Numbered from the stretch's first letter, positions 5,150-63,000 are shown. The stretch is 64,000 nucleotides of DNA from a virus (IMGVR_UViG_3300033475_000013:13944-77943); one strand, 5' to 3'. Translations and numbers: made by a program. The notes: a model not told the origin generated them from the sequence alone.

Positions 5150-5223
5150 GGCTGCATGGCGAAACTGGCAGACGCGTCAGACTTAAAATCTGAATTTTAC
5201 GAGTTCGAATCTCGTTGCGGCTA
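5150..5223 (+). tRNA. tRNA-Leu(UAA) with short variable loop
   Basis: Acceptor GGCTGCA/TGCGGCT; TCAGA-ctTAAaa-TCTGA; T arm ACGAG-TTCGAAT-CTCGT; 5-nt variable loop. Confidence 0.85.
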
Positions 5224-6267
5224 CAAAAATTTCTCGATCAATGTTCTGAAAGCGAGTTCGGCTTGCTGTTCAACGACGGCATTTCCTGCCATGCGAAGAA
5301 GGTCTTCTCTAAAGTTGTACCCATTAATTGCATAACCCAGGCTGGATTCAAGACGAGGCTCTTCGAATTCGAATTGATTTGGTCCTTGTCCTGCTGGAAA
5401 AAGACTTGTCTGGGCAATTGATCGCACCGATTCCTCCCATCGCTTCTTTGCATTTCCATGCCGGCCGTGTCCTTCCAGTCGAGACTGGAAGGAGTTGTCC
5501 ATTGTCTGACTTGAACTGGTAATGCTGTTCCTCCTTGTTGAAATTTTGTTTTTCTGTTGGTTGAACTTGATAACGATGTCGTCCACTTTCTCACTGTCTC
5601 CGCCAGATATAACGGAACGGTGTTCTGGTTGGCATTTGACTTCCGATAATCCAAGCACTTCTGCAAGGTCTCCTCGTCTCTTACTCTGTTCAGAGCAGTA
5701 AGTGTCGGCCACGGCAAGGATGAAGAGACGTTTTCTAAGATGTGGCGTGCCCACTTGCTCCGCAGCGAATATGTCCGCTTCAACTTTGTAACCAAGGCTT
5801 GATATTCGTTCTCTGACTTCCTGGTATCCGATATTGAGGTGGTTTGCGACGTTTTCGAAGAAACAGAGAACAGGTCTAACTGCGTCGATTCCATGTTCAA
5901 AGAAGGGGAAGAGATGTCGTGGATCGGCGACTCCGTTCTGTAGCCCGGCTTGTGAAAATGGTTGACAAGGATATCCTCCAGTGAGGATGTGTATTTTTCG
6001 GTAAAACTGTTCGTACGGGAATGTTTTAAGATCAGTCCAGATAGGCACTGGAGCCACCATACCTTGTTCCATTTTCGCTGCCACATTGTAGGCGGCAAAG
6101 GATTCGATTTCCACAATAGCGGCATATTGGAGAATTCTAGCTTGATACATTTTTTCTCCTTGATGTGGGTACCGTAGTGCTGCAATTCCTCGTTCCAGTC
6201 CTCGATCAAGTCCACCTTGTCCGTGGCAAAGGCTGAGTGTAGCGAGTGTTTTTTCGGGATTATCCAC
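5221..6267 (-). CDS. C5-cytosine DNA methyltransferase, catalytic (alpha-like) chain
   Basis: Motif I LSLCHGQGG, IV GGYPCQPFS, VI FFENV, VIII HLRKRLFI, X LRMAGNAVV; GTG start. Confidence 0.9.
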   Translation of the reverse strand: MDNPEKTLATLSLCHGQGGLDRGLERGIAALRYPHQGEKMYQARILQYAAIVEIESFAAYNVAAKMEQGMVAPVPIWTDLKTFPYEQFYRKIHILTGGYPCQPFSQAGLQNGVADPRHLFPFFEHGIDAVRPVLCFFENVANHLNIGYQEVRERISSLGYKVEADIFAAEQVGTPHLRKRLFILAVADTYCSEQSKRRGDLAEVLGLSEVKCQPEHRSVISGGDSEKVDDIVIKFNQQKNKISTRRNSITSSSQTMDNSFQSRLEGHGRHGNAKKRWEESVRSIAQTSLFPAGQGPNQFEFEEPRLESSLGYAINGYNFREDLLRMAGNAVVEQQAELAFRTLIEKFL

Positions 6268-6269
6268 AT
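5238..6269 (-). CDS. Overlapping alternative-frame protein, candidate MTase beta chain (TRD plus motif IX)
   Basis: 343 codons with no stop over the whole MTase gene; WPT/WTT(P) repeats, DWKD, DQLPRQV and LNPAWVMQLMG; ATG start 2 nt after the upstream stop. Confidence 0.75.
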   Translation of the reverse strand: MWIIPKKHSLHSAFATDKVDLIEDWNEELQHYGTHIKEKKCIKLEFSNMPLLWKSNPLPPTMWQRKWNKVWWLQCLSGLILKHSRTNSFTEKYTSSLEDILVNHFHKPGYRTESPIHDISSPSLNMESTQLDLFSVSSKTSQTTSISDTRKSENEYQALVTKLKRTYSLRSKWARHILENVSSSLPWPTLTALNRVRDEETLQKCLDYRKSNANQNTVPLYLAETVRKWTTSLSSSTNRKTKFQQGGTALPVQVRQWTTPSSLDWKDTAGMEMQRSDGRNRCDQLPRQVFFQQDKDQINSNSKSLVLNPAWVMQLMGTTLEKTFFAWQEMPSLNSKPNSLSEH

Positions 6270-17202: not shown

Positions 17203-17493
17203 ATGTTGACCGGAAAAATTGATTGTTCTAAGATTGAAAAAGCCAGATTGTTTAATGGTAAAGATGGCGCGAAGTATCTTGATATTATTTTGATTCCTAC
17301 GCCTAATGACAAGCATGGTAATGACTACATGATTGTACAGTCCATTACAAAAGAGGAACGTGCTGCCGGGCAGAAAGGTAAAATACTTGGCAATGCTAAA
17401 GAATTAGGACAGCGAAGTAATGCTCCTCAGCAAGGAAATGATGGATGGGGAAGTGCTCCATCTAATAGTGATATTGACGGACTTCCTTTTTAA
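17203..17493 (+). CDS. Single-stranded DNA-binding protein (Bacteroidota phage type)
   Basis: IDCSKIEKARLF...KYLDI...ILGNAK, flexible linker and acidic-aromatic DGLPF tail. Confidence 0.7.
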   Translation: MLTGKIDCSKIEKARLFNGKDGAKYLDIILIPTPNDKHGNDYMIVQSITKEERAAGQKGKILGNAKELGQRSNAPQQGNDGWGSAPSNSDIDGLPF

Positions 17494-17496
17494 GAT

Positions 17497-17913
17497 ATGA
17501 TAGTTGTAGTCGGAGGCTGTTTTGATGTTTTGCACGTCGGGCATATAAACATGCTTATGTTTTGTCGCCAGATAGTAGGACAAAATGGAACTGTTATTGT
17601 CAGCATTGATAGTGATGATAAAATCGCTAAAGATAAAGGTGCGGACAGACCTATCTTCAATGTCTTTGAACGCGAAGATGCACTTATGGCACTTACAGCT
17701 TACGGAAATAAAGTAGTTAATGAAGTGCTTCGTCATCATGATAATGAAGAGTTACTTCAAATCATTGAGAAAATAAGGCCTGACTACATCGTGTCTTGTG
17801 ATGAATATCGAGGACGTGTGGTCGGTGCTGAGTATGCTGAAGTTATTTACTTCAAGAAAGATGCACGATTTTCTTCTACTAAAATAATTGAGGCATGTCG
17901 AAGAAAAGAATAA
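17497..17913 (+). CDS. rfaE2: Heptose-1-phosphate adenylyltransferase (HldE C-terminal domain / RfaE2-like)
   Basis: GGCFDVLHVGH (HxGH), DSD..IAKDKG..RPI, FSSTKII. Confidence 0.85.
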   Translation: MIVVVGGCFDVLHVGHINMLMFCRQIVGQNGTVIVSIDSDDKIAKDKGADRPIFNVFEREDALMALTAYGNKVVNEVLRHHDNEELLQIIEKIRPDYIVSCDEYRGRVVGAEYAEVIYFKKDARFSSTKIIEACRRKE

Positions 17914-18056
17914 GATGCACAATTATTAATAATGAATTTGCTTGTGATCTTGGTAATGGTTGGATTTATTGGTTTGTGATGAATGGAAATCATTATTACG
18001 CAAAACCACTTTTTGGCATATTCGATCCTTTACCTAAAGACTGGAATAATTTATGA
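17895..18056 (+). CDS. Small aromatic-rich protein (53 aa)
   Basis: Manual translation MSKKRIRCTIINNEFACDLGNGWIYWFVMNGNHYYAKPLFGIFDPLPKDWNNL; TGA overlaps the next ATG. Confidence 0.55.
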   Translation: MSKKRIRCTIINNEFACDLGNGWIYWFVMNGNHYYAKPLFGIFDPLPKDWNNL

Positions 18057-18931
18057 CTAACGAAGAAATACTACAGCGTGCAAAAACTTTGAAGATCGCC
18101 ATCATCGGTGATCTGATCGAAGACCGATACATCATTGGTGACGTGCATCGAGTGTCACCTGAAGCTCCAGTAGTAGTAGTTTCAAAAACATCAGAGACTA
18201 CATATGCGGGCGGTGCAGGTAATGTGTTTATGAACCTGGTTAATCTTGGAGTTGATGCATACCTTTTCACCCGAGGTAATCCACGTGCTGATATTCTTTG
18301 TGATAGCATCTTCATTCACCCTGGTAGAACTCCAATTAAGACACGGATCATGTCTAACAATCATCATCTGCTTAGAGTGGATGATGAAGAGAGTAATCCG
18401 GATATAGTAGAGTATGATGATCTGACGTGGAAGGAAGATTTTGAAAAATTATTTCCTTCACTTGATGCCATTATATTCTCTGATTATCATAAAGGAACTA
18501 TCAGTCCATCAATATCGAACACCATTATTTCACTGTGTAATGAATTTAACATACCGGTGTTTGTGGATGCGAAGCGTGATTTTGATAAGTACAAGCATGC
18601 ATTGATGATTAAATGTAACAAGCATGAGGCCAAAGATATTGATGTTGAGAAACTAAGGAGTGATTTGAAGGCCACATATTTTGTGGTGACTACTGGAGAA
18701 ACAGGTATGACTGCTTTTTATTATGGCAATATATGGCTTACACTAGCTGTTGATGTCGGTGTAGTAGATGTGTGTGGTGCTGGAGACATTGTAATTGCTA
18801 TAGCAGCGATGGCTTTCGCTGCCGGAATGAACATGATACCAGCACTTGATCTATCGAATAAAGCAGCAGGTGAGAGTTGTAAGCATGCTGGTGTGTATGC
18901 GTTGACGAAAGAAGACTTTTTAAAATTATGA
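18053..18931 (+). CDS. rfaE1: Heptose-7-phosphate kinase (HldE N-terminal PfkB domain / RfaE1-like)
   Basis: IGDLIEDRY..G.V.RVSPEAPV, GGAGNV..NL..LG, KTRI...LLRVD, FSDYHKG, DVCGAGD. Confidence 0.9.
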   Translation: MTNEEILQRAKTLKIAIIGDLIEDRYIIGDVHRVSPEAPVVVVSKTSETTYAGGAGNVFMNLVNLGVDAYLFTRGNPRADILCDSIFIHPGRTPIKTRIMSNNHHLLRVDDEESNPDIVEYDDLTWKEDFEKLFPSLDAIIFSDYHKGTISPSISNTIISLCNEFNIPVFVDAKRDFDKYKHALMIKCNKHEAKDIDVEKLRSDLKATYFVVTTGETGMTAFYYGNIWLTLAVDVGVVDVCGAGDIVIAIAAMAFAAGMNMIPALDLSNKAAGESCKHAGVYALTKEDFLKL

Positions 18932-19173
18932 GTTTGTATTCAGTTGTGCAGGATATGTCATCAGGCGAGACAATTGAAATATCTGATTATGTCTATTCTG
19001 ATGTCTTTATTTCAAAAGATCCTTACGAATGGTTTAAAAATTCTTTACTTGTTTTTGCTGGTCATAGACCAAACTTAACAACAAAAGAAAAAGAAGAATT
19101 ATTCTGCCGTCAGACTAATTGCATAATAAAGCATGATATAGTGACAATGAAAATTTTCATTACAAAAAAATAA
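18928..19173 (+). CDS. Hypothetical protein (81 aa)
   Basis: ORF track; packed. Confidence 0.6.
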   Translation: MSLYSVVQDMSSGETIEISDYVYSDVFISKDPYEWFKNSLLVFAGHRPNLTTKEKEELFCRQTNCIIKHDIVTMKIFITKK

Positions 19174-19175
19174 TT

Positions 19176-19709
19176 ATGGAAACAGTTACAAACTTATCAC
19201 CATCTCATAAATTAAGACCTGCATTATGTCTTGATTTTGATGGCACTATTAGAAGAAGTCCTAATGGTAATACGTTTATTAAAAACTATCAGGATATTGA
19301 ATTGATTCCTGGGATGGAAGAAAAAATATGGAGTTTCAGAAATAAAGGATATTTAATTCTTGGCATCTCCAATCAAGCAGGCGTTGCTCATGGTTTTAAA
19401 TTACCAATGGAGATTGAATTAGAACTTCAAACAACTCTTAATTTATTTAAAGAAAATCCATTCCACATAGTGAAGCATTGTTACCATGATGGTAAAGGTA
19501 AAATTGAACCATACAATCATCGTTCATTATTACGGAAGCCAGATATAGGCATGTTAGCCGTAATGGAGCATGATGCGTGGAATGAAGGGTTTGTAATTGA
19601 TTGGGACAATTCTCTTTTTGTTGGAGATCGTCCAGAAGATCAAGAATGTGCTCGTAGAGCAGGAATGCCATTTTATCATGTTGATGATTTCAAAGGATTA
19701 GATGATTAA
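19176..19709 (+). CDS. gmhB: GmhB-like D,D-heptose 1,7-bisphosphate phosphatase (HAD IIIA)
   Basis: LDFDGTI, ISNQAGVA, RKPDIGML, FVGDRPED...ARRAG. Confidence 0.8.
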   Translation: METVTNLSPSHKLRPALCLDFDGTIRRSPNGNTFIKNYQDIELIPGMEEKIWSFRNKGYLILGISNQAGVAHGFKLPMEIELELQTTLNLFKENPFHIVKHCYHDGKGKIEPYNHRSLLRKPDIGMLAVMEHDAWNEGFVIDWDNSLFVGDRPEDQECARRAGMPFYHVDDFKGLDD

Positions 19710-19914
19710 GTTCACTCCAATCAATCACCAATTCTCTCTCTTCAACTTCAATGACACGAAGCCAAAGACGAAGATACCTATTAAGCGTATCTCGAAAGAA
19801 CGATATGAGCAGGCGGTGAAAGAATTGAAAGAAGGAAAAGAAAAGAGCATGTTGAATATGCTTAGAGATTTGAATGATTCATTGGATAGATACGAAAAAA
19901 GACATGGCATATAA
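19702..19914 (+). CDS. Hypothetical protein (70 aa)
   Basis: ORF track; packed. Confidence 0.55.
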   Translation: MIKFTPINHQFSLFNFNDTKPKTKIPIKRISKERYEQAVKELKEGKEKSMLNMLRDLNDSLDRYEKRHGI

Positions 19915-20491
19915 AACTGAAAATAAAACAATGTGTATCTGCATAAAATGCGGAAAGCCAATTCAATATGATCAGGAAGATGGATATTGGGACAGCAAAG
20001 AGACAGATGAAAATTCCACGTTATGGACACCTATGTGTGAGGATAAAAAATTTCATGAACCAACATTGCATGTAAGAGGCGATAAAGGGTATTACTATAT
20101 GAAAAAAGAAATTATACCGAGAACAATTTCTATTGATTTTGATTCTACCTGCGTGCTAAACGAATGGCCACAGGTTGGCGAAAGTATTGAACATTGTGTT
20201 GATGTATTGAAGCGATTGAATAAGGCAGGCCATACTCTTATTCTCGTGACTATGAGAGCAAACAATCTGCTTGATGATGCTGAAGAATGGTTTCGAAATA
20301 ATGACATTGAAATAAAATACTCTAACTGCAATCCTGAGTACGAAACTGGATCTCGAAAAATTTATTCTCATTTAATTTTGGATGATAAATCGATTGGTGT
20401 ACCACTGATTAACAATCCGGAGATACACAAAAAGCCATTCGTTGATTGGGTTAAGGTTGAAAAAATATTGGAAGAAAAGGGATACTTATGA
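19874..20491 (+). CDS. HAD-superfamily phosphatase-like protein with N-terminal Cys-rich segment
   Basis: ISIDFDSTC, LILVTMR, KIYSHLILDDK; CICIKC...C...H at the N-terminus. Confidence 0.7.
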   Translation: MIHWIDTKKDMAYKTENKTMCICIKCGKPIQYDQEDGYWDSKETDENSTLWTPMCEDKKFHEPTLHVRGDKGYYYMKKEIIPRTISIDFDSTCVLNEWPQVGESIEHCVDVLKRLNKAGHTLILVTMRANNLLDDAEEWFRNNDIEIKYSNCNPEYETGSRKIYSHLILDDKSIGVPLINNPEIHKKPFVDWVKVEKILEEKGYL

Positions 20492-20987: not shown

Positions 20988-22185
20988 TAAAAGTCTTGTT
21001 ATCTTAAAAAGATATAATCTCCTGTATCTGGCGGCTCAGGTAAGAACTGGAAAAACTTTTATGTCATTGACTATTGCCAAAGAAATAGGATGGCGAAGAG
21101 TATGTTTCATAACCAAAAAAATGGCCATCTCCAGCATTAAGGAAGACTATCAAAAATTTGGTCATTTATTCGATTACATCAATATCACAAACTTTGAACA
21201 AGCAGAAAAACTTCATCCCGAGTATGATGGTTATATCGTAGATGAATCAGTTTCCATTTCTGCTTTTCCCAAACCTGGCGTATACTGCAAGGCACTTAAA
21301 AAAGTAATTCAAAAGAAGCCAGTAATACTTATGTGCGGCACGCCTTGCCCAGAAAGCTATTCTCAGATTTTCCATCAATTCTGGATTTCTTATTTCTCTC
21401 CATTCTCTCCATACGCCAATTTTTACCGATGGGCCGATGATTATGTCATCAAAAAGATTGTATACCGAAATGGATTTCCGATCACAGAGTATAAAAATGC
21501 CAAGCAAAAAGAAATCATGGAAGTGGTCAATCACTACATGGTCACACTCAGTCAGGAAGAGGCTGGCTTTGTTAGTCACGTTGAAGAGGAAGTAGTGTGG
21601 GTAGATATTGATAAGCGTGTATATCAACTGATGGATGTGCTAAAGAAAGATAAGGTGTATAAAATGAAAAATGGCAATCATATCGTATGTGATACACCAG
21701 TTAAAATGCAGAGTGTCTTCCATCAGTTATCATCAGGTACAGTTATTACAGAAGAAGATAAACGGGAACTGATTGATGAAAGCAAGGCTTGGTTTATCAA
21801 ATCAAAGTTCGCCGGACAGAAGATTGCTATTTATTATCAGTTCGTAAGTGAGGGTGATTTACTTCGAAAGGTGTTCCCGTTGAACACGAATGTGCCGGAA
21901 GTATTCAATGAACATGAAAATATTACGTTTATCTGCCAATTATCAAGCGGCAGGATGGGCGTTAACCTGAGCACAGCGGATGCACTTGTGCTCTATAATA
22001 TTGCATTCTCTGCCATTACGTACTGGCAAGTAAGAGCCAGGATGCAGTCACACAGCCGGACCAAGGCGAGTAAGTTGTTTTGGATATTTAGTAAGAATGG
22101 TATTGAGAAGTATATCCATGCCGCGGTGACGAAGAAAAAAGATTATACGCTTAATATTTTCAAAAAAGATTTTGGAATAAAATGA
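20950..22185 (+). CDS. Superfamily 2 (SNF2-like) phage helicase
   Basis: Walker A VRTGKT, YIVDES, MCGTP, GRMGVNL...Q.RAR. Confidence 0.85.
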   Translation: MITLRPEQRATVDKSLVILKRYNLLYLAAQVRTGKTFMSLTIAKEIGWRRVCFITKKMAISSIKEDYQKFGHLFDYINITNFEQAEKLHPEYDGYIVDESVSISAFPKPGVYCKALKKVIQKKPVILMCGTPCPESYSQIFHQFWISYFSPFSPYANFYRWADDYVIKKIVYRNGFPITEYKNAKQKEIMEVVNHYMVTLSQEEAGFVSHVEEEVVWVDIDKRVYQLMDVLKKDKVYKMKNGNHIVCDTPVKMQSVFHQLSSGTVITEEDKRELIDESKAWFIKSKFAGQKIAIYYQFVSEGDLLRKVFPLNTNVPEVFNEHENITFICQLSSGRMGVNLSTADALVLYNIAFSAITYWQVRARMQSHSRTKASKLFWIFSKNGIEKYIHAAVTKKKDYTLNIFKKDFGIK

Positions 22186-22685
22186 TTAAGGAAGCCTTCT
22201 TTTCCCCATGTAGACAATATCGATATCGCCTAGACAGGACATGGAACCGTAATTTACCCACAGCAATGTGTATAGGACTCAATCCGTCTACAGCAGATGA
22301 GCACGAAGATGATGCTACCATTGAATCCATCATCCGTATTTTAACCCACAATGGATATGGAGCACTGAGAATGTGTAATGTATTTGCTATTATATCACCA
22401 AATCCTGAAGATATTCGTTCATGCCCAGATCCAGTGAAGGAAAATGATAAATGGCTTATTGAAACTATAGAGTACTCCCACATTCAAATACTGTGCTACG
22501 GCAACTTTAAACAAGTAACCTATCGTCTACCGTTCATCAAATCAATTATCACAGAACCAATGTGTTTCGGACACAACAAGAACGGATCACCAGTCCATCC
22601 ATTATATAAGAAGGCAACAACACAAATTATTAAATTTAATGGCCCAAGAGTCCAAACTTCAGATACGAATCACCAAAAAGCTTAA
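22182..22685 (+). CDS. DUF1643 family protein
   Basis: CRQYRYRLDRTW, CIGLNPSTAD...DATI, HPLY. Confidence 0.85.
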   Translation: MIKEAFFSPCRQYRYRLDRTWNRNLPTAMCIGLNPSTADEHEDDATIESIIRILTHNGYGALRMCNVFAIISPNPEDIRSCPDPVKENDKWLIETIEYSHIQILCYGNFKQVTYRLPFIKSIITEPMCFGHNKNGSPVHPLYKKATTQIIKFNGPRVQTSDTNHQKA

Positions 22686-34664: not shown

Positions 34665-35330
34665 ATGAGCTTAGTACCTTCCTTTACAATAACTCAGCAA
34701 GATGGTGGTGCCACCGCGCTGGCAGTCAATACTACTCCGTACGGGTCGCCAAATCAAGATCGAAATCAAGCGGCAGAGTATGTACTATGGTCAAAAACAG
34801 ACCAAAACGGATTACGATCATTCAATAACCCGGACCAAGGAAACGTACTTACTAATCTTCAATACAGTGTCCAAACACCAGTTGATGGATGGTATGAATT
34901 GATCCGGTTAAGAATTCAATTTTATAATGCTGGTGCTAATTATGTAGAAGAGCAATCCAGCGGAGGAGTTATCACACAATATGCAAGTATTTTTTATTAC
35001 GGAACTACTGGTAAAGTTTATCAGGCAATTACACCGTCTATTGGTCAATCACCAACAGATACTAATTACTTTGTTGAAGTTCCTGACCTAAGTGTCATTC
35101 TAGCCAATACCAACATTGAAGTTTATTATCAGAATTTTTATGGTGAATACAATACCAATGTGTGTATCCGAGATAAAGATTTAGAGAATTGTAATTGTGG
35201 TGGAGGAGATGAAGCACTTGATCTATTGTATGCACAAAAACAATCAGCTGATACAAATTTTGCTAATGGCTATCCTGACCGGATGGAGAAAATAATTCGT
35301 GAACTTGAACAAACTTGTACACAATGTTAA
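34665..35330 (+). CDS. Structural protein, tail hub/fibre-attachment-like
   Basis: Beta-rich N-terminus, Cys-containing C-terminal helices; precedes the fibre gene. Confidence 0.55.
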   Translation: MSLVPSFTITQQDGGATALAVNTTPYGSPNQDRNQAAEYVLWSKTDQNGLRSFNNPDQGNVLTNLQYSVQTPVDGWYELIRLRIQFYNAGANYVEEQSSGGVITQYASIFYYGTTGKVYQAITPSIGQSPTDTNYFVEVPDLSVILANTNIEVYYQNFYGEYNTNVCIRDKDLENCNCGGGDEALDLLYAQKQSADTNFANGYPDRMEKIIRELEQTCTQC

Positions 35331-38300
35331 TAGCAGATGCATTTAACATACTCTCAGAAGCTAATGCAAAAATTGCTTCATTAGGGATAGACATTATTGA
35401 TCAGGCAGGAACTCCTAAGCAGCCAAAAACAGAACGGCAACTTATAAGAGCACGCCAGTTATATAATCTTCTTAATAAGTTTATTTTTTTAAATGCTGGC
35501 GGTACAGCTATTACAGGAACATTTGGTCAGAATGACGCAGCACTAAACAGGCTTTTACTGCAATTAAAAAAAGTAGCAGAGATATTTACTTTTCCTGCTA
35601 TTCCAAATCCCATAAATTCATTTGTTACATCAGGGCAATCTGGTGGATCACAACTTCCTGTTGGTGCTTCTGAAGGTGATCTATTATATTTTCATAATGG
35701 TGGCTGGACTAATTTTGCAAAAGGCGCTGATGGTACAGTGCTCACATCTTCTCCGTCAGGACTTGTGTGGAGTTCTGCTGTTGGAAATGGTATTCCATCA
35801 GGAGGATTAACTGGACAGTATTTAGCAAAGACATCAAATGCTTCTTATGCAGTTGCCTGGCAAACACTGACTTTAAATAAAATTACAGATGTTACAGCAT
35901 CTGCGGCAGAGGTTAATATTCTTGATGGTGCTTTAGTATCCTTTCAGGAAATTAATACTTTAATCGGAATTAATACCGGAACAACAATTCAATCTCAACT
36001 TGATGGTAAGTTGGGAGGATCACTTGCTAATGGTAAATTCCTAGTAGGAAATGGTTCTGGTATAGCCACTGCGGTTACACCAACTGGAGATGTTACCTTT
36101 AATAACACTGGAGTTTTTGCTATTACTTCAGCATCAATAGTTGATGCTGACATCAATGGATCAGCAGCAATAACCAGATCAAAAATAGCTTCTGGAAATA
36201 TTAATAGAGTTGTAGTTAATAATGGTTCTGGAGTTCTATCAGATGCTGCTGCCATCACTGCTAACCGTGTGTTATTATCAGATGCTAATGGCATTCCAAC
36301 AGCAAGCGGAGTAACAACTACAGCATTTGCATTTTTTGATCCAACATCTTCAATACAAAATCAATTAGATAGTAAACTCACTGTTAGTTTAACTTCTCCC
36401 GCTCAAGGTGATACTATTTATTTTAATGGTACTAATTGGACTAATCTTCCTGTAGGCACAGCAGGTCAAGTATTAACAACTGATGGAGTAACTGTATCGT
36501 GGGGATCTCCAACAGCTAATGGTATTCCAACTGGAGGAACTACACATCAATATCTTCGCAAGATTGATGCAACAAATTATAATACAGAGTGGCACACTTT
36601 TGTGCTCACTGATGTGTCGGATGTAACAACTACATCAACTGAACTTAATTTATTATCAGGGTTAACAACGCCTGCTTCAAAACTTAATTTTTCAAGTTCA
36701 GTAACGAGTGACATTCAGACCCAACTGAATTTAAAACTCAGCACTTCACTTGCTTATAATGCACTATTTGTTGGTAATGTATCTAACACAGCGGGACAAT
36801 TATCACCAGGTGCAGATAATCAAGTCTTGATGATTATTAGTGGCTCTCCAACATGGCAGACATTCACTCCTGGTACCGGCTCAGTAACATCAATTGATGT
36901 ATCAGGAGGAACAACCGGATTATCTTTTACAGGCGGTCCGGTGACAACCACAGGAACCATCACTGCTTCAGGAACATTGATCGCTGCTAATGGAGGAACT
37001 GGATCATCATCGTATACAAAAGGTGATATTTTAATTGCTTCAGCAAGCACAACTTTGACCAAACTTGCAGTTGGTACTAATACTTTTGTATTAACTGCTG
37101 ACTCAACTCAACCAACTGGTGTTAAGTGGGCAGCAGCACCTGGTGCGGGAACTGGAACTGTTACATCTGTAGATGTAACAACAGCAAATGGAGTTAGTGC
37201 AACTGGCGGACCAATAACTTCTTCAGGTAGCTTTACATTTTCTTTAGGAGCGATAACGCCAACAAGTGTTAATGGAATTGTATTCTCAGGTAGTTCAACA
37301 CCAACATTATCTGTAACTGGAACCTCATCTATATCAGGCTCAAACACTGGAGATCAAACAATCACCCTTACTGGTAATGTTACTGGTTCTGGAACAGGAT
37401 CATTTGCAACAACTATTGCGGCTGGTGTTGTAACCAACTCAATGCTAGCTGGCGGGATTGATTTAACGACTAAAGTTACTGGAGTATTACCAGTATCTAA
37501 CGGTGGTCAAGGAAACGCATCTCTTACAGCTTACGCTCCTTTATTCGGGGGAACAACATCCACAGCACCAGTTCAAAGTGGAACCACCGGAACTGCTGGT
37601 CAAGTCCTTACTTCTAATGGTGCAGGAAGTTTACCTACATGGGCAGCAGCATTAAGTTATGGTTTAGCAACACAGATACCATTTACAAACGGAAGTGCTA
37701 ATGGATTCAGCTATTCATCAGCATTTGCATTTGATACTACATATCAGAATTTATTTGTTGGTGGATCAAATACTTATACAATATCCACACCCGGATATAT
37801 AAATAACACTTACGTATTTGCTGAACAGACAACATTAACAACAGGTAATACAGCCCCATCAATTATCACAGATGCTGTTGTCTTTGGATTTCAAAACTTT
37901 ATTGGTGATGGAACTAATTATTATTCTGGTTCATCATCACTTACTTATGGTGCTCATAACAAAAATTATACTGGCGGCGGATTAGTTGGTGGGTTATATG
38001 CAAGATTATTACACTCAGGAGAAGGCAGTGGAGTACATTATCATTTTGGTGGAATTGCAATTGGTGTTGGAGGTTCATCAGCGACAGGAAGTGAACTGGT
38101 AACAGCAGTAGCTACATCAATAAACATTAGCTATAATTCATCTTCACAAACAGCGGGACATGGTGCTTATGGTTATAATTCAGTTATTATAGCTGGTCAA
38201 GACCATAATATTCCAAGCACATCCCCACGCTCAGCTGTTATTGCTGGTAATGCTATCAAAGCTAGAGCATCAGATCCTGATCAAGTTTATGTTCCTAATT

Positions 38301-40729
38301 TTAATATCGTAACTACACCAGCAAATGATGATGCATTAACTCAAATTTTAGCTAGGGATGCAACAACAGGATTAATAAAATACAGAACAGCATCTTCTAT
38401 TATAGGAAGTGCATTCTGGCCATTAACAGGATCGGCACTATTAACTGGAGCAGTTACTATTGATGGAGACATTGGTAGTTATGGAGTAACCTTAGATGCA
38501 TTAGAGCATTTCACTGTCAATGTACAAGGTGGCAATAGCTTTAATGTCAATGTTGCTGACACTGGAGATATAAACTTGAGTCCAAACTCAGGAAATATCA
38601 ATCTAACAACATTTGGAAGCAACGTCACTCAATTAGAAGCATCTGGAACTGGGTATGTATTTGCCGTATCCGGTGCTGGTATAATGCTGAATGTAAACAG
38701 TGATGCAACTGGCGATATTCCTTATCGTAATTCTTCTGGATATTTAGCACGAAGAGGTATAGGAACATCAGGGCAAGTCCTTACGGTATCCGGTGGATTA
38801 CCAGTATGGGCAACACCATCTGCTGGATTCGCTAATCCTATGACTACACTGGGTGATCTTATTTACGAGGACGCCACTCCAACAGCAGTTAGGTTAGCAG
38901 GTAATACAACAACGACAAGAAAATTTTTAAGTCAAACAGGTAATGGAACGATAAGTGCTGCTCCTGTATGGAATGCATTAGTTAGTGGCGATATTCCAAA
39001 CAATGCTGCAAATACTACTGGTAGTGCAGCAACTTTAACAACATCAAGATCTATCTCCATGACTGGCGATGCAACATGGACTGTTAATTTTGATGGAAGT
39101 GCAAATGTAACGGCAGCAGGAACTTTAGCTACTGTAAATAGCAATGTTGGCACATTTGGTTCAGCTACTACATCATTGACTGTTACTGTTAATGGAAAGG
39201 GTTTGGTGACCGCAATGAGTTCACAAACGGTTACTCCGGCAGTTGGGTCTATAACTGGATTAGGAACTGGAGTTGGTACTTGGTTAGCTACCCCTTCATG
39301 GACTAATTTTACTTCAGCAATTACAGGTACAGCACCATTTTGGAATACTTCAGGGAGCACTACGATTACCACACCAACGATTACAGGGAAACCAACCTGG
39401 ACACAAGCTTCTGAATCAGCAACAAATACATTTCAAACATTTACCCAGGCAGCACATACTGGCGGTAGCCCAGTCGGGATATTGTATACTGGCGGTGCTC
39501 ACACAACAATAGCTGTTTCTGAATTCACAGACTTCAATTTGAACGCATCAAGGACTGTAAATTTTGCATCCGGTGGTGGTACGATAGCAAACGAACGCAT
39601 AGTACGAATTCAAGCTCCAACACTAACCGCAACAACAAACGGTATTACAATCACAAAGGCCGCTACTTTAGCTATAAGTGATGCCCCTACAGCATTCACA
39701 AACGTAACTATTACACAAGGCTATGCTTTGGATATTGAAGCCGGTAAAATGAAAGTTGGAAGCTTTACGCCCCCGGGCACAACCTTAACAGCAGCAATCC
39801 AAACCAGCGGTGAGGTCCGGGCTACAGGAGGTTTTAATCTTCGAAACGTTACGACAAATGATAACGCAAAAATAGGATTTTTCATCAATGGTACTGCTGA
39901 TGTTGATATTTTTGCTAATGCTGCCGCAACATTATTAATAAAAAATATAGGATCAACATCAACAGGTGGTGCTTATGTAAGAGCGTCTGGTACATTATCA
40001 CCAACTACAGGAACGGCAAATGCAACCAGTGCTTTTCTATCTTCTGTTGCTTGGCAGGCCAGCGGCGGAACTAATAATTTTTCAGGTATTGAAATTAGTG
40101 GTGTAATAAGCACATCTGGTACATGGGCTGGTGATATTCGAGGATTTTATTATAATCCACAATTAAGTGGAACCACAGGACTTGCAAATAATTATGCTAT
40201 TCTGGCAACAAGTGGAAAAGTTTTAATTAATGGATCTACAATCACTGCCTCTACTGAAATGGACATTAGAGGAACAGGTACAACTTCTAGCACAATAAAT
40301 ACTAGGTGGGCAGATAGCGGCAACACATTATTAATGTCATTATTAGATAATGGATTTTTAGGAATAGGTAATATCACTGCTGCGGTAGGTCTTGATATTA
40401 ATGTAGGAATAGCAAGTAGACAACAATCACCTGCACAAATAACATCTAATCAAAATAATTATGCCATTGGTGCTCAGACCTCATTTAGATTAAATACCGA
40501 TGCTTCCAGAAATATTACAGGATTAACAGGAGGTGTTGATGGTAAATTTTTATTCATAAGAAACGTTGGAAGTTTTAATATTGTGTTTACGCATGAAGAT
40601 GGAGCTTCTACTGCGGCAAATAGAATTACAAGTTCAACAGCGGGAAATTTAACAATTGCTCCAAATGGAGTATTAGTATTACAATATGACTCCAGCGCAA
40701 GCCGATGGTTTGATGTTGCAGTTAGATAA
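35315..40729 (+). CDS. Long tail fibre / receptor-binding protein (1804 aa)
   Basis: G/S/T/A-rich with internal repeats (GDxxY..G.WTNL..G..GQVLT; GTVTSVDV; NGIPxGG). Confidence 0.85.
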   Translation: MYTMLIADAFNILSEANAKIASLGIDIIDQAGTPKQPKTERQLIRARQLYNLLNKFIFLNAGGTAITGTFGQNDAALNRLLLQLKKVAEIFTFPAIPNPINSFVTSGQSGGSQLPVGASEGDLLYFHNGGWTNFAKGADGTVLTSSPSGLVWSSAVGNGIPSGGLTGQYLAKTSNASYAVAWQTLTLNKITDVTASAAEVNILDGALVSFQEINTLIGINTGTTIQSQLDGKLGGSLANGKFLVGNGSGIATAVTPTGDVTFNNTGVFAITSASIVDADINGSAAITRSKIASGNINRVVVNNGSGVLSDAAAITANRVLLSDANGIPTASGVTTTAFAFFDPTSSIQNQLDSKLTVSLTSPAQGDTIYFNGTNWTNLPVGTAGQVLTTDGVTVSWGSPTANGIPTGGTTHQYLRKIDATNYNTEWHTFVLTDVSDVTTTSTELNLLSGLTTPASKLNFSSSVTSDIQTQLNLKLSTSLAYNALFVGNVSNTAGQLSPGADNQVLMIISGSPTWQTFTPGTGSVTSIDVSGGTTGLSFTGGPVTTTGTITASGTLIAANGGTGSSSYTKGDILIASASTTLTKLAVGTNTFVLTADSTQPTGVKWAAAPGAGTGTVTSVDVTTANGVSATGGPITSSGSFTFSLGAITPTSVNGIVFSGSSTPTLSVTGTSSISGSNTGDQTITLTGNVTGSGTGSFATTIAAGVVTNSMLAGGIDLTTKVTGVLPVSNGGQGNASLTAYAPLFGGTTSTAPVQSGTTGTAGQVLTSNGAGSLPTWAAALSYGLATQIPFTNGSANGFSYSSAFAFDTTYQNLFVGGSNTYTISTPGYINNTYVFAEQTTLTTGNTAPSIITDAVVFGFQNFIGDGTNYYSGSSSLTYGAHNKNYTGGGLVGGLYARLLHSGEGSGVHYHFGGIAIGVGGSSATGSELVTAVATSINISYNSSSQTAGHGAYGYNSVIIAGQDHNIPSTSPRSAVIAGNAIKARASDPDQVYVPNFNIVTTPANDDALTQILARDATTGLIKYRTASSIIGSAFWPLTGSALLTGAVTIDGDIGSYGVTLDALEHFTVNVQGGNSFNVNVADTGDINLSPNSGNINLTTFGSNVTQLEASGTGYVFAVSGAGIMLNVNSDATGDIPYRNSSGYLARRGIGTSGQVLTVSGGLPVWATPSAGFANPMTTLGDLIYEDATPTAVRLAGNTTTTRKFLSQTGNGTISAAPVWNALVSGDIPNNAANTTGSAATLTTSRSISMTGDATWTVNFDGSANVTAAGTLATVNSNVGTFGSATTSLTVTVNGKGLVTAMSSQTVTPAVGSITGLGTGVGTWLATPSWTNFTSAITGTAPFWNTSGSTTITTPTITGKPTWTQASESATNTFQTFTQAAHTGGSPVGILYTGGAHTTIAVSEFTDFNLNASRTVNFASGGGTIANERIVRIQAPTLTATTNGITITKAATLAISDAPTAFTNVTITQGYALDIEAGKMKVGSFTPPGTTLTAAIQTSGEVRATGGFNLRNVTTNDNAKIGFFINGTADVDIFANAAATLLIKNIGSTSTGGAYVRASGTLSPTTGTANATSAFLSSVAWQASGGTNNFSGIEISGVISTSGTWAGDIRGFYYNPQLSGTTGLANNYAILATSGKVLINGSTITASTEMDIRGTGTTSSTINTRWADSGNTLLMSLLDNGFLGIGNITAAVGLDINVGIASRQQSPAQITSNQNNYAIGAQTSFRLNTDASRNITGLTGGVDGKFLFIRNVGSFNIVFTHEDGASTAANRITSSTAGNLTIAPNGVLVLQYDSSASRWFDVAVR

Positions 40730-59487: not shown

Positions 59488-60300
59488 TTATTTTAGTTCT
59501 CCAATTACATCCTGCGCAGGCATCACAAAATATTCCTCATCCTCTACCTTAACCGAACAATCAGCATTCGGCAAATACACAATCTTTGTTCCTGGAATCA
59601 AATGATCATGTCCACTATGAGCGACAATACCTTGTAACCATTTCTTATCCGGTTGCGTCTTTAAAATTATTCCTGAAGGTGAAGTAATTTCATCCCATGT
59701 CTCCATGTCTGGTTTAATGAGCACCCACTCACCTTGCATGATTATTCTGTTGAATTCTTTTTTTTGAAAGAATGAATCATCTTGATCTAAAGTAATACTC
59801 CCTATTTTATTATCACGAACAACACAAATGATCTCCGCTACATTGATCTGATATACCTCACGCTCTTTTGTCTTCTCCAGCATGTTCTCATCTTCAGTAC
59901 ACTGAGGTAAGAAGTAAACCTTATCACCAACTTTAACATCAACTCGCTCAGCAATGTCTGCCATAGTCACCACATCATACTTCTCATACGTGCTTGGGTA
60001 ATAAGCCTTATCAGAATGATTGCGATAGCCTCTGTTTATTCGATCTACAATATCATCATGGCCAACATATTTATGATAAGCAGGCATGCCATCGTCAATG
60101 GCACGGTAACCATTTTCAGAGAACATTTTTGGAACAGATAGTACTGTGCCGTAAATGCGCTTGTGTTCGTTACGATCCATATCCTTGTCATCAATCCATG
60201 CAGTATTGATCAGGATGATGCCAGCCTTTGTTTTAGTCTCTGGATAACGGCTGTCAATAGCGACGGTGAAGTAGTCTTGGATGGGTTCAATCATGGTCAC
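59488..60300 (-). CDS. Tandem GroES-like co-chaperonin with two domains
   Basis: Domain 1 EPIQDYF...TKAGII...GTVLSVP...VKVGDKVYF; domain 2 EWVLIKP...SPSGII...GIVAH...EYFVM. Confidence 0.75.
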   Translation of the reverse strand: MTMIEPIQDYFTVAIDSRYPETKTKAGIILINTAWIDDKDMDRNEHKRIYGTVLSVPKMFSENGYRAIDDGMPAYHKYVGHDDIVDRINRGYRNHSDKAYYPSTYEKYDVVTMADIAERVDVKVGDKVYFLPQCTEDENMLEKTKEREVYQINVAEIICVVRDNKIGSITLDQDDSFFQKKEFNRIIMQGEWVLIKPDMETWDEITSPSGIILKTQPDKKWLQGIVAHSGHDHLIPGTKIVYLPNADCSVKVEDEEYFVMPAQDVIGELK

Positions 60301-60707: not shown

Positions 60708-61496
60708 TTGGAGAACAAATTACTATTCAAGCACGGTTGCTTCGCTGGTGACCTGATCTATGCCCTGGCAGGCATTAAAACCATCTGTGAGTCATCCGAT
60801 CACAAAGCAGTCATCTACCAATGGCTAAATCAACAAGGCAGGCTATACGAAGGTGCAGAGCACCCGTACGGATCATCCATGATGAATAAATATGCCTTTG
60901 ATATGTTGAAGCCCCTGATCGAGTCCCAGGATTATGTAGAGTCATTCAATGAATGGAAAGGAGAGAAAGTAATGGTAGATATGGATATGATCCGGCAGGT
61001 AAAGAACCACATGCCGTATGGTAATATTGTCACCTGGCTGGCGATGGTGTTCGCTGAGATGCGTCCGAAGTATTGGGAGCCATGGATTACACTCAATCAT
61101 CCTGCGATGTATAATAAGGCCTTGGAGGGAATGATTTTAATTAACCGGACATCTAGGTATCACGGGCAGTGGATTGATTATTTTTTCCTGAAGGAATATC
61201 AGGAACGGTTAATGTTTATCGGGATGCCGGAAGAGCATAAACAATTCTGCATGGAATGGGGCTTTACTATTCCTCACTATGTCGTTAATGATTTTCTGGA
61301 ATTAGCTATTGCGCTTAAATCGTGTAAGCTATTCATTGGCAATCAGTCGATGTGCTTTGCGATAGCGGAGGCGATGAAGGTTCCGAGGATACTGGAGATA
61401 TGTGACTTTGCCCCGAACGTTCATCCTTGTGGTGAGGGTGGTTATTATTTTAGAGTGCCTGAGATTTTTCAACATCTTGTAAAGCAATTGGCATGA
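60708..61496 (+). CDS. GT9-like (heptosyltransferase-type, GT-B) glycosyltransferase
   Basis: FKHG..AGDLIYAL N-terminus; LELAIALKSCKLFIGNQS...AIAEAMKVP C-terminal motif. Confidence 0.75.
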   Translation: MENKLLFKHGCFAGDLIYALAGIKTICESSDHKAVIYQWLNQQGRLYEGAEHPYGSSMMNKYAFDMLKPLIESQDYVESFNEWKGEKVMVDMDMIRQVKNHMPYGNIVTWLAMVFAEMRPKYWEPWITLNHPAMYNKALEGMILINRTSRYHGQWIDYFFLKEYQERLMFIGMPEEHKQFCMEWGFTIPHYVVNDFLELAIALKSCKLFIGNQSMCFAIAEAMKVPRILEICDFAPNVHPCGEGGYYFRVPEIFQHLVKQLA

Positions 61497-61939: not shown

Positions 61940-62431
61940 ATGGCAAAAGGAAAAGCTTACTATATGCCTGTGGAGCCACAGACAGAAGAAGAAAAAAAAG
62001 TTGCGCAGGAATCTTATGATGCCTCTGTTCAAGAGAAGGCGGAACGATTGAAGCAACTCTCGGAAGATAAAGAAGAGAAGCAGAAAGCTATCAACTTTAT
62101 GACTGAAAAGTTCGCACCATTCGAAGATCGTATTCTGGTTTATCCTGATCCAGTAGAAGAAAAGACTGCTGGCGGACTTTACAAGCCGGATGCTGCCATT
62201 GATAAAGTGAAGCCGATGATTGGCACTGTGGTTGCTGTTGGCCCAGGCAAGGCTAACTCAACTTATATGAGAACACAAAATAATAAGTATGATTCTGTAA
62301 CCACTTCAGAATTTCCGGTTCATAAAGGTATGCGAATATCGTATGGAAATTACGCTGGCACTGAGTTCATCATTGATGATGTGAAGTATTTGATTATGCG
62401 ATTCGCGGACTGTTTTGGGGAAGTGAAATGA
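61940..62431 (+). CDS. groES: Co-chaperonin GroES with N-terminal extension
   Basis: PFEDRILV.P...EEKTAGGLYKP...GTVVAVGPGK...YAGTE...YLIM. Confidence 0.9.
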   Translation: MAKGKAYYMPVEPQTEEEKKVAQESYDASVQEKAERLKQLSEDKEEKQKAINFMTEKFAPFEDRILVYPDPVEEKTAGGLYKPDAAIDKVKPMIGTVVAVGPGKANSTYMRTQNNKYDSVTTSEFPVHKGMRISYGNYAGTEFIIDDVKYLIMRFADCFGEVK

Positions 62432-63000
62432 AAACAATAAAGTTTCGCGCGTGGGATGAGCAATTTAAAATCATGCGATATGATTTTGTAGTTGGATTTA
62501 ATCCCGATCAAAAAATTACCACAGGAGTATTTGGTGGTACTCCGGGAAAAGGATTTGAACCTTTTATTGGCCGATCTATAAATGACAAGGAATTCGATTA
62601 TTTCGATATTATGCCATTCACTGGCTTCTTAGATAAGAATGGCAAAGAAATTTATGAAGGTGATATTTTTCGGGTCGAGAAAGTGGATGAAGAAATTTGT
62701 GATCAATGCGATGGCTGTGGATGGCATGAAGGCGGCGAGTCATTAAAAACATCATGTGAACATTGTAATGGGACTGGTTCTTTCATTGGCGATAAGATTT
62801 ATTACTTAGTCATAGTCTGGGTTAAAGAATGGGGTATGTTTTGTACTCTTACAGTAGAGCGTGAGTATTTTAATTACATCAATGGCGGAATTAAAGCACT
62901 TGATGAACCTATGTTTTGGACATATACATTAGAAGATACTAATAGCAAGAAATTTTTCCTTTGTGGGAATATTCACGAAACACCAGAATTACTAAAATGA
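62428..63000 (+). CDS. YopX-family protein with CxxCxGxG insertion
   Basis: IKFRAWD; MPFTGFLDKNGKEIYEGDI; CDQCDGCG and CEHCNGTG; GNIHETPELL. Confidence 0.8.
   Translation: MKTIKFRAWDEQFKIMRYDFVVGFNPDQKITTGVFGGTPGKGFEPFIGRSINDKEFDYFDIMPFTGFLDKNGKEIYEGDIFRVEKVDEEICDQCDGCGWHEGGESLKTSCEHCNGTGSFIGDKIYYLVIVWVKEWGMFCTLTVEREYFNYINGGIKALDEPMFWTYTLEDTNSKKFFLCGNIHETPELLK

Follow-up and report, generated by a model that had tools for sequence, protein, structure and literature searches.

The viral DNA analyzed here (IMGVR_UViG_3300033475_000013:13944-77943; 64,000 nt in all, hereafter the window) carries predicted genes for the synthesis of activated heptose together with a set of glycosyltransferase genes, and on balance we lean towards reading the two as a self-contained phage heptose glycosylation system in two parts, one supplying the sugar donor and the other using it. 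The window corresponds to C497:6970-70969, C497 being a contig of 77,957 bp within a metagenome-assembled genome (MAG; 623 contigs, 6.85 Mb, 87% complete). A segment of 141 bp from the contig start is repeated at the contig end, and this terminal overlap indicates a closed (circular) phage genome of ~77.8 kb. The genes discussed are listed in Table 1.

Pathway enzymes were assigned with the NCBIfam equivalog cut-offs as reference. The HldC-like nucleotidyltransferase matched the cytidylyltransferase-like family PF01467 (46.5 bits) and phrog_7878 (95.7 bits), and its top NCBIfam match was rfaE_dom_II (62.7 bits, E = 3e-17, cut-off 181.5), against 38.9 bits for the glycerol-3-phosphate cytidylyltransferase model; both the HVGH and SSTKI motifs are present in its translation. 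The kinase that follows was recognized by rfaE_dom_I (211 bits, E = 1.8e-62, cut-off 345) with all other kinase families at 31 bits or less, and its sole PDB sequence match is HldA of Burkholderia cenocepacia (4e84, E = 4.8e-28). It carries HRVSPEAPV and GAGD motifs, of which RVSPEAPV and GAGD are invariant among 28 homologues. The third gene encodes a GmhB-like phosphatase, for which the GmhB model NF006506 scored 53.6 bits (under its cut-off) and the broader HAD-SF-IIIA model 51.9 bits (over its cut-off). Its closest PDB entries are GmhB 2gmw and 3l8e (E about 1e-8, best 1.2e-8), with polynucleotide 3'-phosphatases behind, and it displays the HAD motifs DFDGT, SNQAG, RKP and GDR. An earlier note, made from the window sequence, had named exactly these three enzymes (an HxGH nucleotidyltransferase at 17497, a PfkB kinase with RVSPEAPV at 18053 and a GmhB-type HAD phosphatase at 19176), and profiles, motifs and PDB matches bear it out on each.

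The next gene downstream offers a second phosphatase candidate. The C-terminal 120 amino acids (aa) of its product form a small HAD-like domain with a DFDST motif (PDB 2obb, E = 9e-15; phrog_1238, 90.9 bits), and the protein shows 64% identity to L006:11366-11758. In the closest complete relative (G001), where the GmhB-like protein had no match, a stand-alone copy of the small HAD gene comes after the kinase instead, which suggests that a phosphatase is kept at this position while the gene supplying it varies. The PHROGs label of phrog_1238, "phosphoheptose isomerase", was rejected for this protein given its DxDxT HAD signature, its match to 2obb and the lack of a SIS fold, and is probably a propagated mis-annotation.

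The isomerase itself was found elsewhere. According to the earlier note neither GmhA nor HldD was visible in the window; a predicted GmhA is in fact encoded on the same contig outside it, and an HldD-type enzyme is indeed absent from C497. GmhA matched PF13580 (SIS_2, 86 bits), NF001628 (253.4 bits, cut-off 265) and TIGR00441 (202.6 bits, cut-off 209.45), with DiaA as the best non-isomerase family (141 bits). For both the kinase and GmhA, scores far above those of other families, and near but under the equivalog cut-offs, argue for the proposed identities. Short-chain dehydrogenase/reductase epimerases of the HldD type (PF01370) gave 0 matches on C497, all 21 in the assembly lying on other contigs, so that the pathway is predicted to end in ADP-heptose of the D,D form. 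With all four steps encoded on one closed genome, the phage appears able to make its own activated heptose, as had been proposed.

Among the enzymes that would use this donor is a fusion protein (P0121) encoded at the right-hand edge of the window. The GT9-like gene that the earlier note placed at 62997 does have a GT9 fold by structure prediction, but it starts at 62961 and leaves the window. P0121 matched DUF5672 (PF18922, 70.9 bits), and its sole NCBIfam match was a weak one to TIGR04414 (Aah/TibC, E = 0.0027). In its AlphaFold2 (AF2) model, built from 40 homologues (predicted local distance difference test, pLDDT, 93.4), residues 14-210 adopt a GT-A fold (Z 11-13; GfsA 13.3, glycogenin, GT6 enzymes, and A64R of the chlorovirus PBCV-1 at 11.9), and residues 209-475 a GT9-type GT-B fold closest to TibC (Z 21.1 over 257 residues at 2.9 Å), ahead of WaaF (19.7), the GT9 structure 3tov (19.7) and WaaC (18.7). 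A profile of the P0121 family searched against PDB sequences likewise retrieved TibC (E = 1.5e-5) and then WaaF (E = 0.02), so that the TibC/AAH enzymes (bacterial autotransporter heptosyltransferases, BAHT, which O-heptosylate proteins; family GT9; PDB 4rap, 4rb4) are the top match of the C-terminal domain by both sequence profile and structure. TibC and P0121 have in common an N-lobe of four strands, a GD motif with the catalytic Asp and, ahead of the last helix, a Cys-rich insertion. The catalytic D222 and the donor-binding D390-S391-G392 of P0121 are invariant in 16 of 16 sequences, and its Cys/His cluster (C430, C437, H439, C449 and C458) occupies the site of the four-Cys iron finger of TibC, with C437, C449 and C458 invariant, H439 kept in 15 and C430 in 13 of the 16.

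A second, compact GT9-fold enzyme (P0122) is encoded at 60708, where the earlier note had also seen a GT9-like gene. Its AF2 model (pLDDT 90.2), compared with VIA-align, resembles WaaC (Z 16.7), WaaF (16.6), the GT9 structure 3tov (16.6) and TibC (14.6), and the next non-GT9 glycosyltransferase-type fold follows at 10.8. The Arabidopsis NDH subunit 7wff_a, which we take to have a GT9-like fold, scored 16.0. The N-terminal G14-D15 of P0122 is invariant, and N-Q213-S214 stands in place of the DSG motif; hhalign against the fusion profile returned only a 33-column match, at this donor motif. The Pfam GT9 model (PF01075) had no match in P0121, P0122 or elsewhere on C497, and single-sequence PDB searches with P0121, P0122 and a third, GT2-like transferase candidate gave 0 matches. 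Many relatives of P0121 at 48-62% identity do carry a precomputed PF01075 match, and since both structure and relatives indicate GT9, the missing Pfam match is not taken as refuting the assignment. Two confidently predicted GT9 folds, each with the catalytic GD motif, thus suggest that the phage has GT9-type enzymes with which heptose could be used.

On the 3' side of P0121 lie two class-I methyltransferase genes (one of the CmcI/rhamnosyl O-methyltransferase type) and then the gene of a 310-aa protein (P0123) whose Atlas model resembles GT2 enzymes (template-modeling score 0.71-0.76) and for which hhalign found no match to the fusion profile. The compact GT9, the DUF5672-GT9 fusion and the GT2-like gene make up a transferase module, with the two methyltransferase genes in between on C497, at the end of a long rightward gene block after the structural genes. 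PHROGs holds no family for any transferase or methyltransferase of this module. Proteins with a GroES/Cpn10 C-terminal domain and long N-terminal extensions are encoded on either side of the module, and similar ones occur near it in distant relatives (L094:13495-14418 and L092); they may serve in capsid folding or be tied to the module.

More than 2,600 kinase homologues were detected, many of the closest on contigs of 67-85 kb, as well as more than 2,100 homologues of the fusion glycosyltransferase (48-75% identity), many with precomputed PF18922 and PF01075 matches. At least 14 other contigs of 67-84 kb appear in both lists (paired by identical size, hence indirectly), and G001 (77,300 bp, with terminal repeats) holds kinase, GmhA and fusion glycosyltransferase together, which points to co-occurrence of kinase and fusion across a sizeable uncultured clade. 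In IMG/VR, relatives were found by an alignment-based scan, a scan with one protein having returned none. Across 19 IMG/VR loci with the fusion (L089-L107), a homologue of the compact GT9 lies within 10 kb of it in 17 and the GT2-like gene in 16, and the large terminase subunits (TerL) of these loci are 23-33% identical to that of the C497 phage. The three transferase genes thus look like a conserved and probably mobile module. This module is far more widespread than the donor pathway: an HldA-like kinase was found in 3 and GmhA in 1 of 19 records with the fusion, and among seven complete relatives one has both kinase and GmhA and six have neither. The association that the earlier note expected between pathway and glycosyltransferases therefore holds in the near clade but is one-way. 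At locus L097, HldA- and HldC-like genes are neighbours of the module, at a distance of 1.5-4 kb. Around the module of L094, a relative without the pathway, a search for other nucleotide-sugar genes gave none.

A possible reason for this pattern lies in the host. Contigs of ~78 kb with full-length or near-full-length homologues of the fusion were binned into two MAGs, one of Chitinophagaceae and one of Mucilaginibacter, which both have chromosomal HldE-class kinases (346-356 bits) and none on their phage-sized contigs. In the MAG of C497, strong matches were limited to the kinase and GmhA of the phage, and no chromosomal HldE was found. An HldE-class kinase (at least 268 bits) was present in 21 of 30 related genomes and missing from a genome of the same genus with 95% completeness. 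With pathway-less phages in HldE-bearing MAGs and the pathway-bearing phage in a MAG without HldE, the pathway looks like an accessory donor supply, and the simplest reading of this small sample (two MAGs with pathway-less phages, the C497 MAG and the 30 genomes) is that the module needs ADP-heptose and that the pathway is carried where the host lacks it and dispensable elsewhere.

Taken from gene content, folds, motifs and co-occurrence, the substrates, product, timing and acceptor of the system would be as follows. GmhA would convert sedoheptulose-7-phosphate to D-glycero-D-manno-heptose-7-phosphate and the HldA-like kinase would turn this into the beta-1,7-bisphosphate, whose 7-phosphate would be removed by the GmhB-like enzyme, the small HAD domain of the next gene, or both, before the HldC-like transferase forms the nucleoside diphosphate (NDP)-heptose. 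The module enzymes would then build onto a macromolecule a short glycan that contains heptose and is probably O-methylated. Of the two parts, the module would be the widely shared one, and the donor pathway an accessory that frees the phage from hosts lacking ADP-heptose. The absence of HldD from C497 fits with TibC, which uses ADP-D,D-heptose (PMC4358343). Given the TibC-like features of P0121, we tentatively propose virion protein (one kind or several) as the likeliest acceptor, with O-heptosylation of the type performed by TibC/AAH. It is tempting to go further and speculate that a large uncultured phage clade, probably infecting Bacteroidota, O-heptosylates its own virion proteins through a TibC-like GT9/GT-A fusion, with partner enzymes extending and methylating the glycan and the pathway carried if the host lacks the donor; we regard this complete scenario as somewhat doubtful. 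If true, it would describe the first heptosylated virus particle, and the first relative of protein heptosyltransferases outside autotransporter systems.

Several observations weigh against these proposals. Every pathway enzyme scored below its NCBIfam equivalog cut-off, so that all are divergent family members whose substrate and nucleotide specificity we infer. The lead of TibC over the lipopolysaccharide (LPS) heptosyltransferases in the fusion is small (Z 21.1 against 19.7, within ~1.5 units), and P0122 is closer to WaaC and WaaF than to TibC. The N-terminal beta-barrel of TibC is absent from P0121, which has the DUF5672 GT-A domain at residues 14-210 instead, and identity between the two is ~16%. 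BAHT enzymes are dodecameric rings that act on a Ser-rich beta-helix, and no such autotransporter substrate is available for P0121. The putative metal site, placed by sequence and position, has a different Cys spacing (C-x6-C-x-H-x9-C-x8-C in P0121, C-x2-C-x15-C-x11-C in TibC). As for the host pattern, the C497 MAG is incomplete, at only 87%, and the binning of phage contigs is weak evidence of a host. The fusion keeps ~47% identity between phages that share only ~20-30% in terminase and portal, and a gene so much better conserved than the structural genes fits better with a universal acceptor, such as host envelope lipid or DNA, than with a virion protein that evolves fast. Finally, the Ser/Thr-rich tail fibre suggested as a target in the earlier note is real (1804 aa, 25.5% Ser+Thr with up to 41 per 100 aa, and GxxGQVLT...W repeat units), but most relatives with the glycosyltransferase do not conserve it, partial homologues being present in just 2 of 10; we therefore rejected it as a general, conserved acceptor.

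An alternative that we consider unlikely, yet take seriously, is remodeling of the host envelope, with methylated heptose side chains placed on the LPS or lipooligosaccharide core, on capsule or on another lipid-linked glycan, and the pathway supplying a donor that the host lacks. The receptor would then be masked, leading to superinfection exclusion and to fewer progeny lost on cell debris, a benefit to which we give the same low credence. Characterized GT9 enzymes outside the TibC/AAH group all act on the LPS inner core, the ranking of P0122 (WaaC and WaaF over TibC) agrees with such a role, and the Joint Genome Institute label of several relatives is "ADP-heptose:LPS heptosyltransferase". 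That very divergent phages retain the module also speaks for a conserved acceptor in the host, bacterial chromosomes often carry stand-alone DUF5672 domains, and the "LPS genes" of the cyanomyophage P-SSM2 were originally read in this way (PMC1079782). However, the module shows neither a membrane anchor nor a flippase or lipid-carrier enzyme, the phage has no integrase and looks lytic, and the module follows the structural genes rather than lying among early ones. In addition, the N-lobe, which in WaaC and WaaF binds Kdo2-lipid A, is shortened in both GT9 domains, and the nearest match of the fusion is TibC, not an LPS enzyme.

Modification of DNA, also proposed in the earlier note, fares worse. 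Here heptose would be added to a hydroxylated pyrimidine and block restriction or nuclease defenses, as in metavirome heptosyl-5-hydroxymethylcytosine (5hmC): a phage cluster of HAD-APH, cytidylyltransferase and GT-B genes yielded heptose and di-heptose on 5hmC (bioRxiv 10.1101/2023.12.21.572611), and the arabinosyl-5-hydroxycytosine (5hoC) pathway follows the same logic of isomerase, kinase, HAD phosphatase and nucleotidyltransferase (PMC13326640). The heptose genes do have replication and recombination genes around them, the high conservation of the module would be accounted for by a universal acceptor, and the phage encodes a cytosine-C5 methyltransferase, the frame 5221-6267 covering the N-terminal two thirds of PF00145 (the overlapping frame 5238-6269 had no Pfam match). 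Yet this methyltransferase, on the opposite strand in another gene block distant from the module, is the only such gene, and the prerequisite for a hydroxylated base is missing: no thymidylate-synthase/hydroxymethylase homologue (PF00303) was found on C497, no oxygenase in Pfam scans of the larger early and replication open reading frames, and no Tet/JBP (PF12851) in the whole assembly, the last a weak point as control genomes gave 0 matches too. Moreover, known DNA glycosyltransferases cluster with a base-hydroxylating enzyme and are T4 beta-GT-like or JGT-like rather than GT9, and the module methyltransferases belong to the sugar or small-molecule O-methyltransferase type (Methyltransf_24/CmcI). 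We regard DNA hypermodification as improbable.

It would finally be conceivable that pathway and module have nothing to do with each other, the heptose genes forming an auxiliary metabolic cassette that boosts or diverts host sedoheptulose-7-phosphate or LPS metabolism, or makes another NDP-sugar, and the GT9-fold enzymes using another host donor. Such independence would agree with the ~43 kb between the two on the C497 map, the module without pathway in 6 of 7 complete relatives, the occurrence of HldA-like kinases at 590 or more IMG/VR loci from a wide range of unrelated phages (the fusion being absent from most), the sub-cut-off scores of all pathway enzymes, and NQS in place of DSG in the compact GT9; nevertheless, it seems very unlikely given that GT9 is essentially a heptosyltransferase family, that the pathway-less phages are found in MAGs making their own ADP-heptose, that the heptose genes directly adjoin the module in L097, and that the 14 or more long contigs mentioned above carry both kinase and fusion.

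Compared with known systems, the donor part of the proposed glycosylation system has the same four enzyme families, motifs and order of steps as the bacterial ADP-heptose pathway (split HldA/HldC in Burkholderia and Neisseria, fused HldE in E. coli, with GmhA and GmhB), but the phage genes are divergent, lie at two loci on opposite strands and lack HldD, and a second, unrelated small HAD domain is found downstream, replacing the GmhB-like gene in G001. Among phages, the cyanomyophage "LPS gene" clusters (P-SSM2, S-SSM7, S-CAM1/3) comprise a PfkB heptose kinase, a nucleotidyltransferase and a phosphoheptose isomerase; the P-SSM2 genes were already discussed under that name in 2005 (PMC1079782). 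The cyanomyophage kinase is ~30% identical to that of the C497 phage, and the clusters belong to T4-like jumbo genomes infecting cyanobacteria, in which only DUF5672 matches and no DUF5672-GT9 fusion were found. These cyanophage DUF5672 domains adjoin deoxysugar genes (DegT, CDP-4-dehydro-6-deoxyglucose 3-dehydratase), and stand-alone domains of ~200 aa are very common on chromosomes of Betaproteobacteria and other bacteria (loci L170-L248). The phage NDP-arabinose pathway (RB69, DLP3, and AfhE/AfhF of HY126) also combines a SIS isomerase, an anomeric kinase, HAD removal of the distal phosphate, a nucleotidyltransferase and several glycosyltransferases. It differs in its KdsD-type isomerase, its APH-type kinase fused to an NTP-transferase and its GT4-like transferases, and is always linked to a thymidylate-synthase-like 5hoC synthase, absent in the C497 phage.

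Virus-encoded sets of several glycosyltransferases and methyltransferases acting on capsid proteins are known from chloroviruses, where A64R of PBCV-1 matches DUF5672 as noted above, and from mycobacteriophages, in both cases with other sugars and other glycosyltransferase families; to our knowledge, neither heptose nor GT9 enzymes occur in these modules. Calling the C497 genes an unusual phage system, as in the earlier note, was an overstatement: cyanomyophage annotations already include a heptose kinase, a nucleotidyltransferase and an isomerase, PHROGs holds families for heptose-pathway genes, and with the 590 or more IMG/VR loci this means that the heptose pathway alone is not new. What appears to be undescribed is the DUF5672-GT9 fusion, the three-gene module, and a carriage of the pathway that seems to track host supply; full-text literature searches returned no paper on the function of DUF5672 or on phage GT9 enzymes.

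For two decades phage heptose genes have been filed under "LPS" auxiliary genes, and no purpose has been demonstrated for them; the present clade links a complete predicted donor pathway to a specific, highly conserved module, which makes phage heptose use a testable system. The widespread, uncharacterized domain DUF5672, here predicted to have a GT-A fold, would gain a function as well. If the virion is the target, both the sugar and the enzyme family would be new to phage protein glycosylation, and phage stability as well as host and immune recognition would be affected; if DNA or the host envelope is the target, the result would be a new anti-restriction or exclusion chemistry.

Table 1. 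Positions of the genes discussed, in window coordinates unless preceded by the name of a contig or locus.
Feature	Position	Strand	Basis
HldC-like (HldE domain II-like) sugar-1-phosphate nucleotidyltransferase, 138 aa	17497-17913	+	PF01467, rfaE_dom_II, phrog_7878, motifs
HldA-like D-beta-D-heptose-7-phosphate 1-kinase (PfkB), 292 aa	18053-18931	+	rfaE_dom_I, PDB 4e84, motifs
GmhB-like HAD-IIIA phosphatase, 177 aa, candidate heptose-1,7-bisphosphate 7-phosphatase	19176-19709	+	NF006506, HAD-SF-IIIA, PDB
205-aa protein with C-terminal small HAD-like domain, second phosphatase candidate	19874-20491	+	phrog_1238, PDB 2obb
Predicted GmhA	C497:77305-77883 (L088:10306-10884), beyond window end	-	NF001628, TIGR00441, PF13580
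P0122, compact GT9-fold glycosyltransferase, 262 aa	60708-61496	+	AF2, VIA-align
P0121, DUF5672 GT-A + TibC-like GT9 fusion, 475 aa	62961-64000, continues to contig 71357 (L088:2931-4358)	+	PF18922, AF2
Ser/Thr/Gly-rich repeat fibre, 1804 aa, acceptor candidate of the earlier note	35315-40729	+	composition, repeats
Cytosine-C5 DNA methyltransferase	5221-6269	-	PF00145, 87.8 bits for frame 5221-6267
96-aa protein, earlier called ssb	17203-17493	+	phrog_24909 (unknown function); tail ...DIDGLPF
GroES/Cpn10 C-terminal domain protein	59488-60300	-	
GroES/Cpn10 C-terminal domain protein	61940-62431	+	
Small serine recombinase, resolvase/invertase type	C497:4677-5258 (= L004:4677-5258)	-	PF00239, 157 bits
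DUF7666 + pentapeptide-repeat protein, 329 aa	C497:5901-6890 (= L004:5901-6890)	-	
DUF1643 protein	22182-22685		116.7 bits
Protein with crAss-virus muzzle-protein C-terminal domain, 1376 aa	44366-48496		PF25729, 30.5 bits

The remainder of the genome is consistent with an uncultured phage whose host is probably a member of the Bacteroidota. No cultured phage matched the locus at the DNA level (0 matches by blastn against 50,697 phage records). Replication-type genes include a DnaB helicase, RecT, a PDDEXK nuclease and an SNF2-like helicase, and structural genes a P22-like portal, a crAss-type muzzle-protein domain and large fibre proteins. No integrase was seen on C497, only the small resolvase-type recombinase, and the phage looks lytic. 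The gene upstream of the heptose genes, called ssb in the earlier note, does encode an acidic C-terminal tail resembling that of SSB, but has no Pfam match.

Four further genes deserve mention. The serine recombinase could invert DNA or resolve dimers. Pentapeptide-repeat proteins are frequent DNA mimics, and the DUF7666/pentapeptide protein may be an anti-defense candidate. The DUF1643 gene lies directly 3' of the SNF2-like helicase gene, in the replication block. Lastly, the muzzle domain hints at a podovirus tail of the crAss-like kind, in a genome of 78 kb that shows no other crAss hallmarks.

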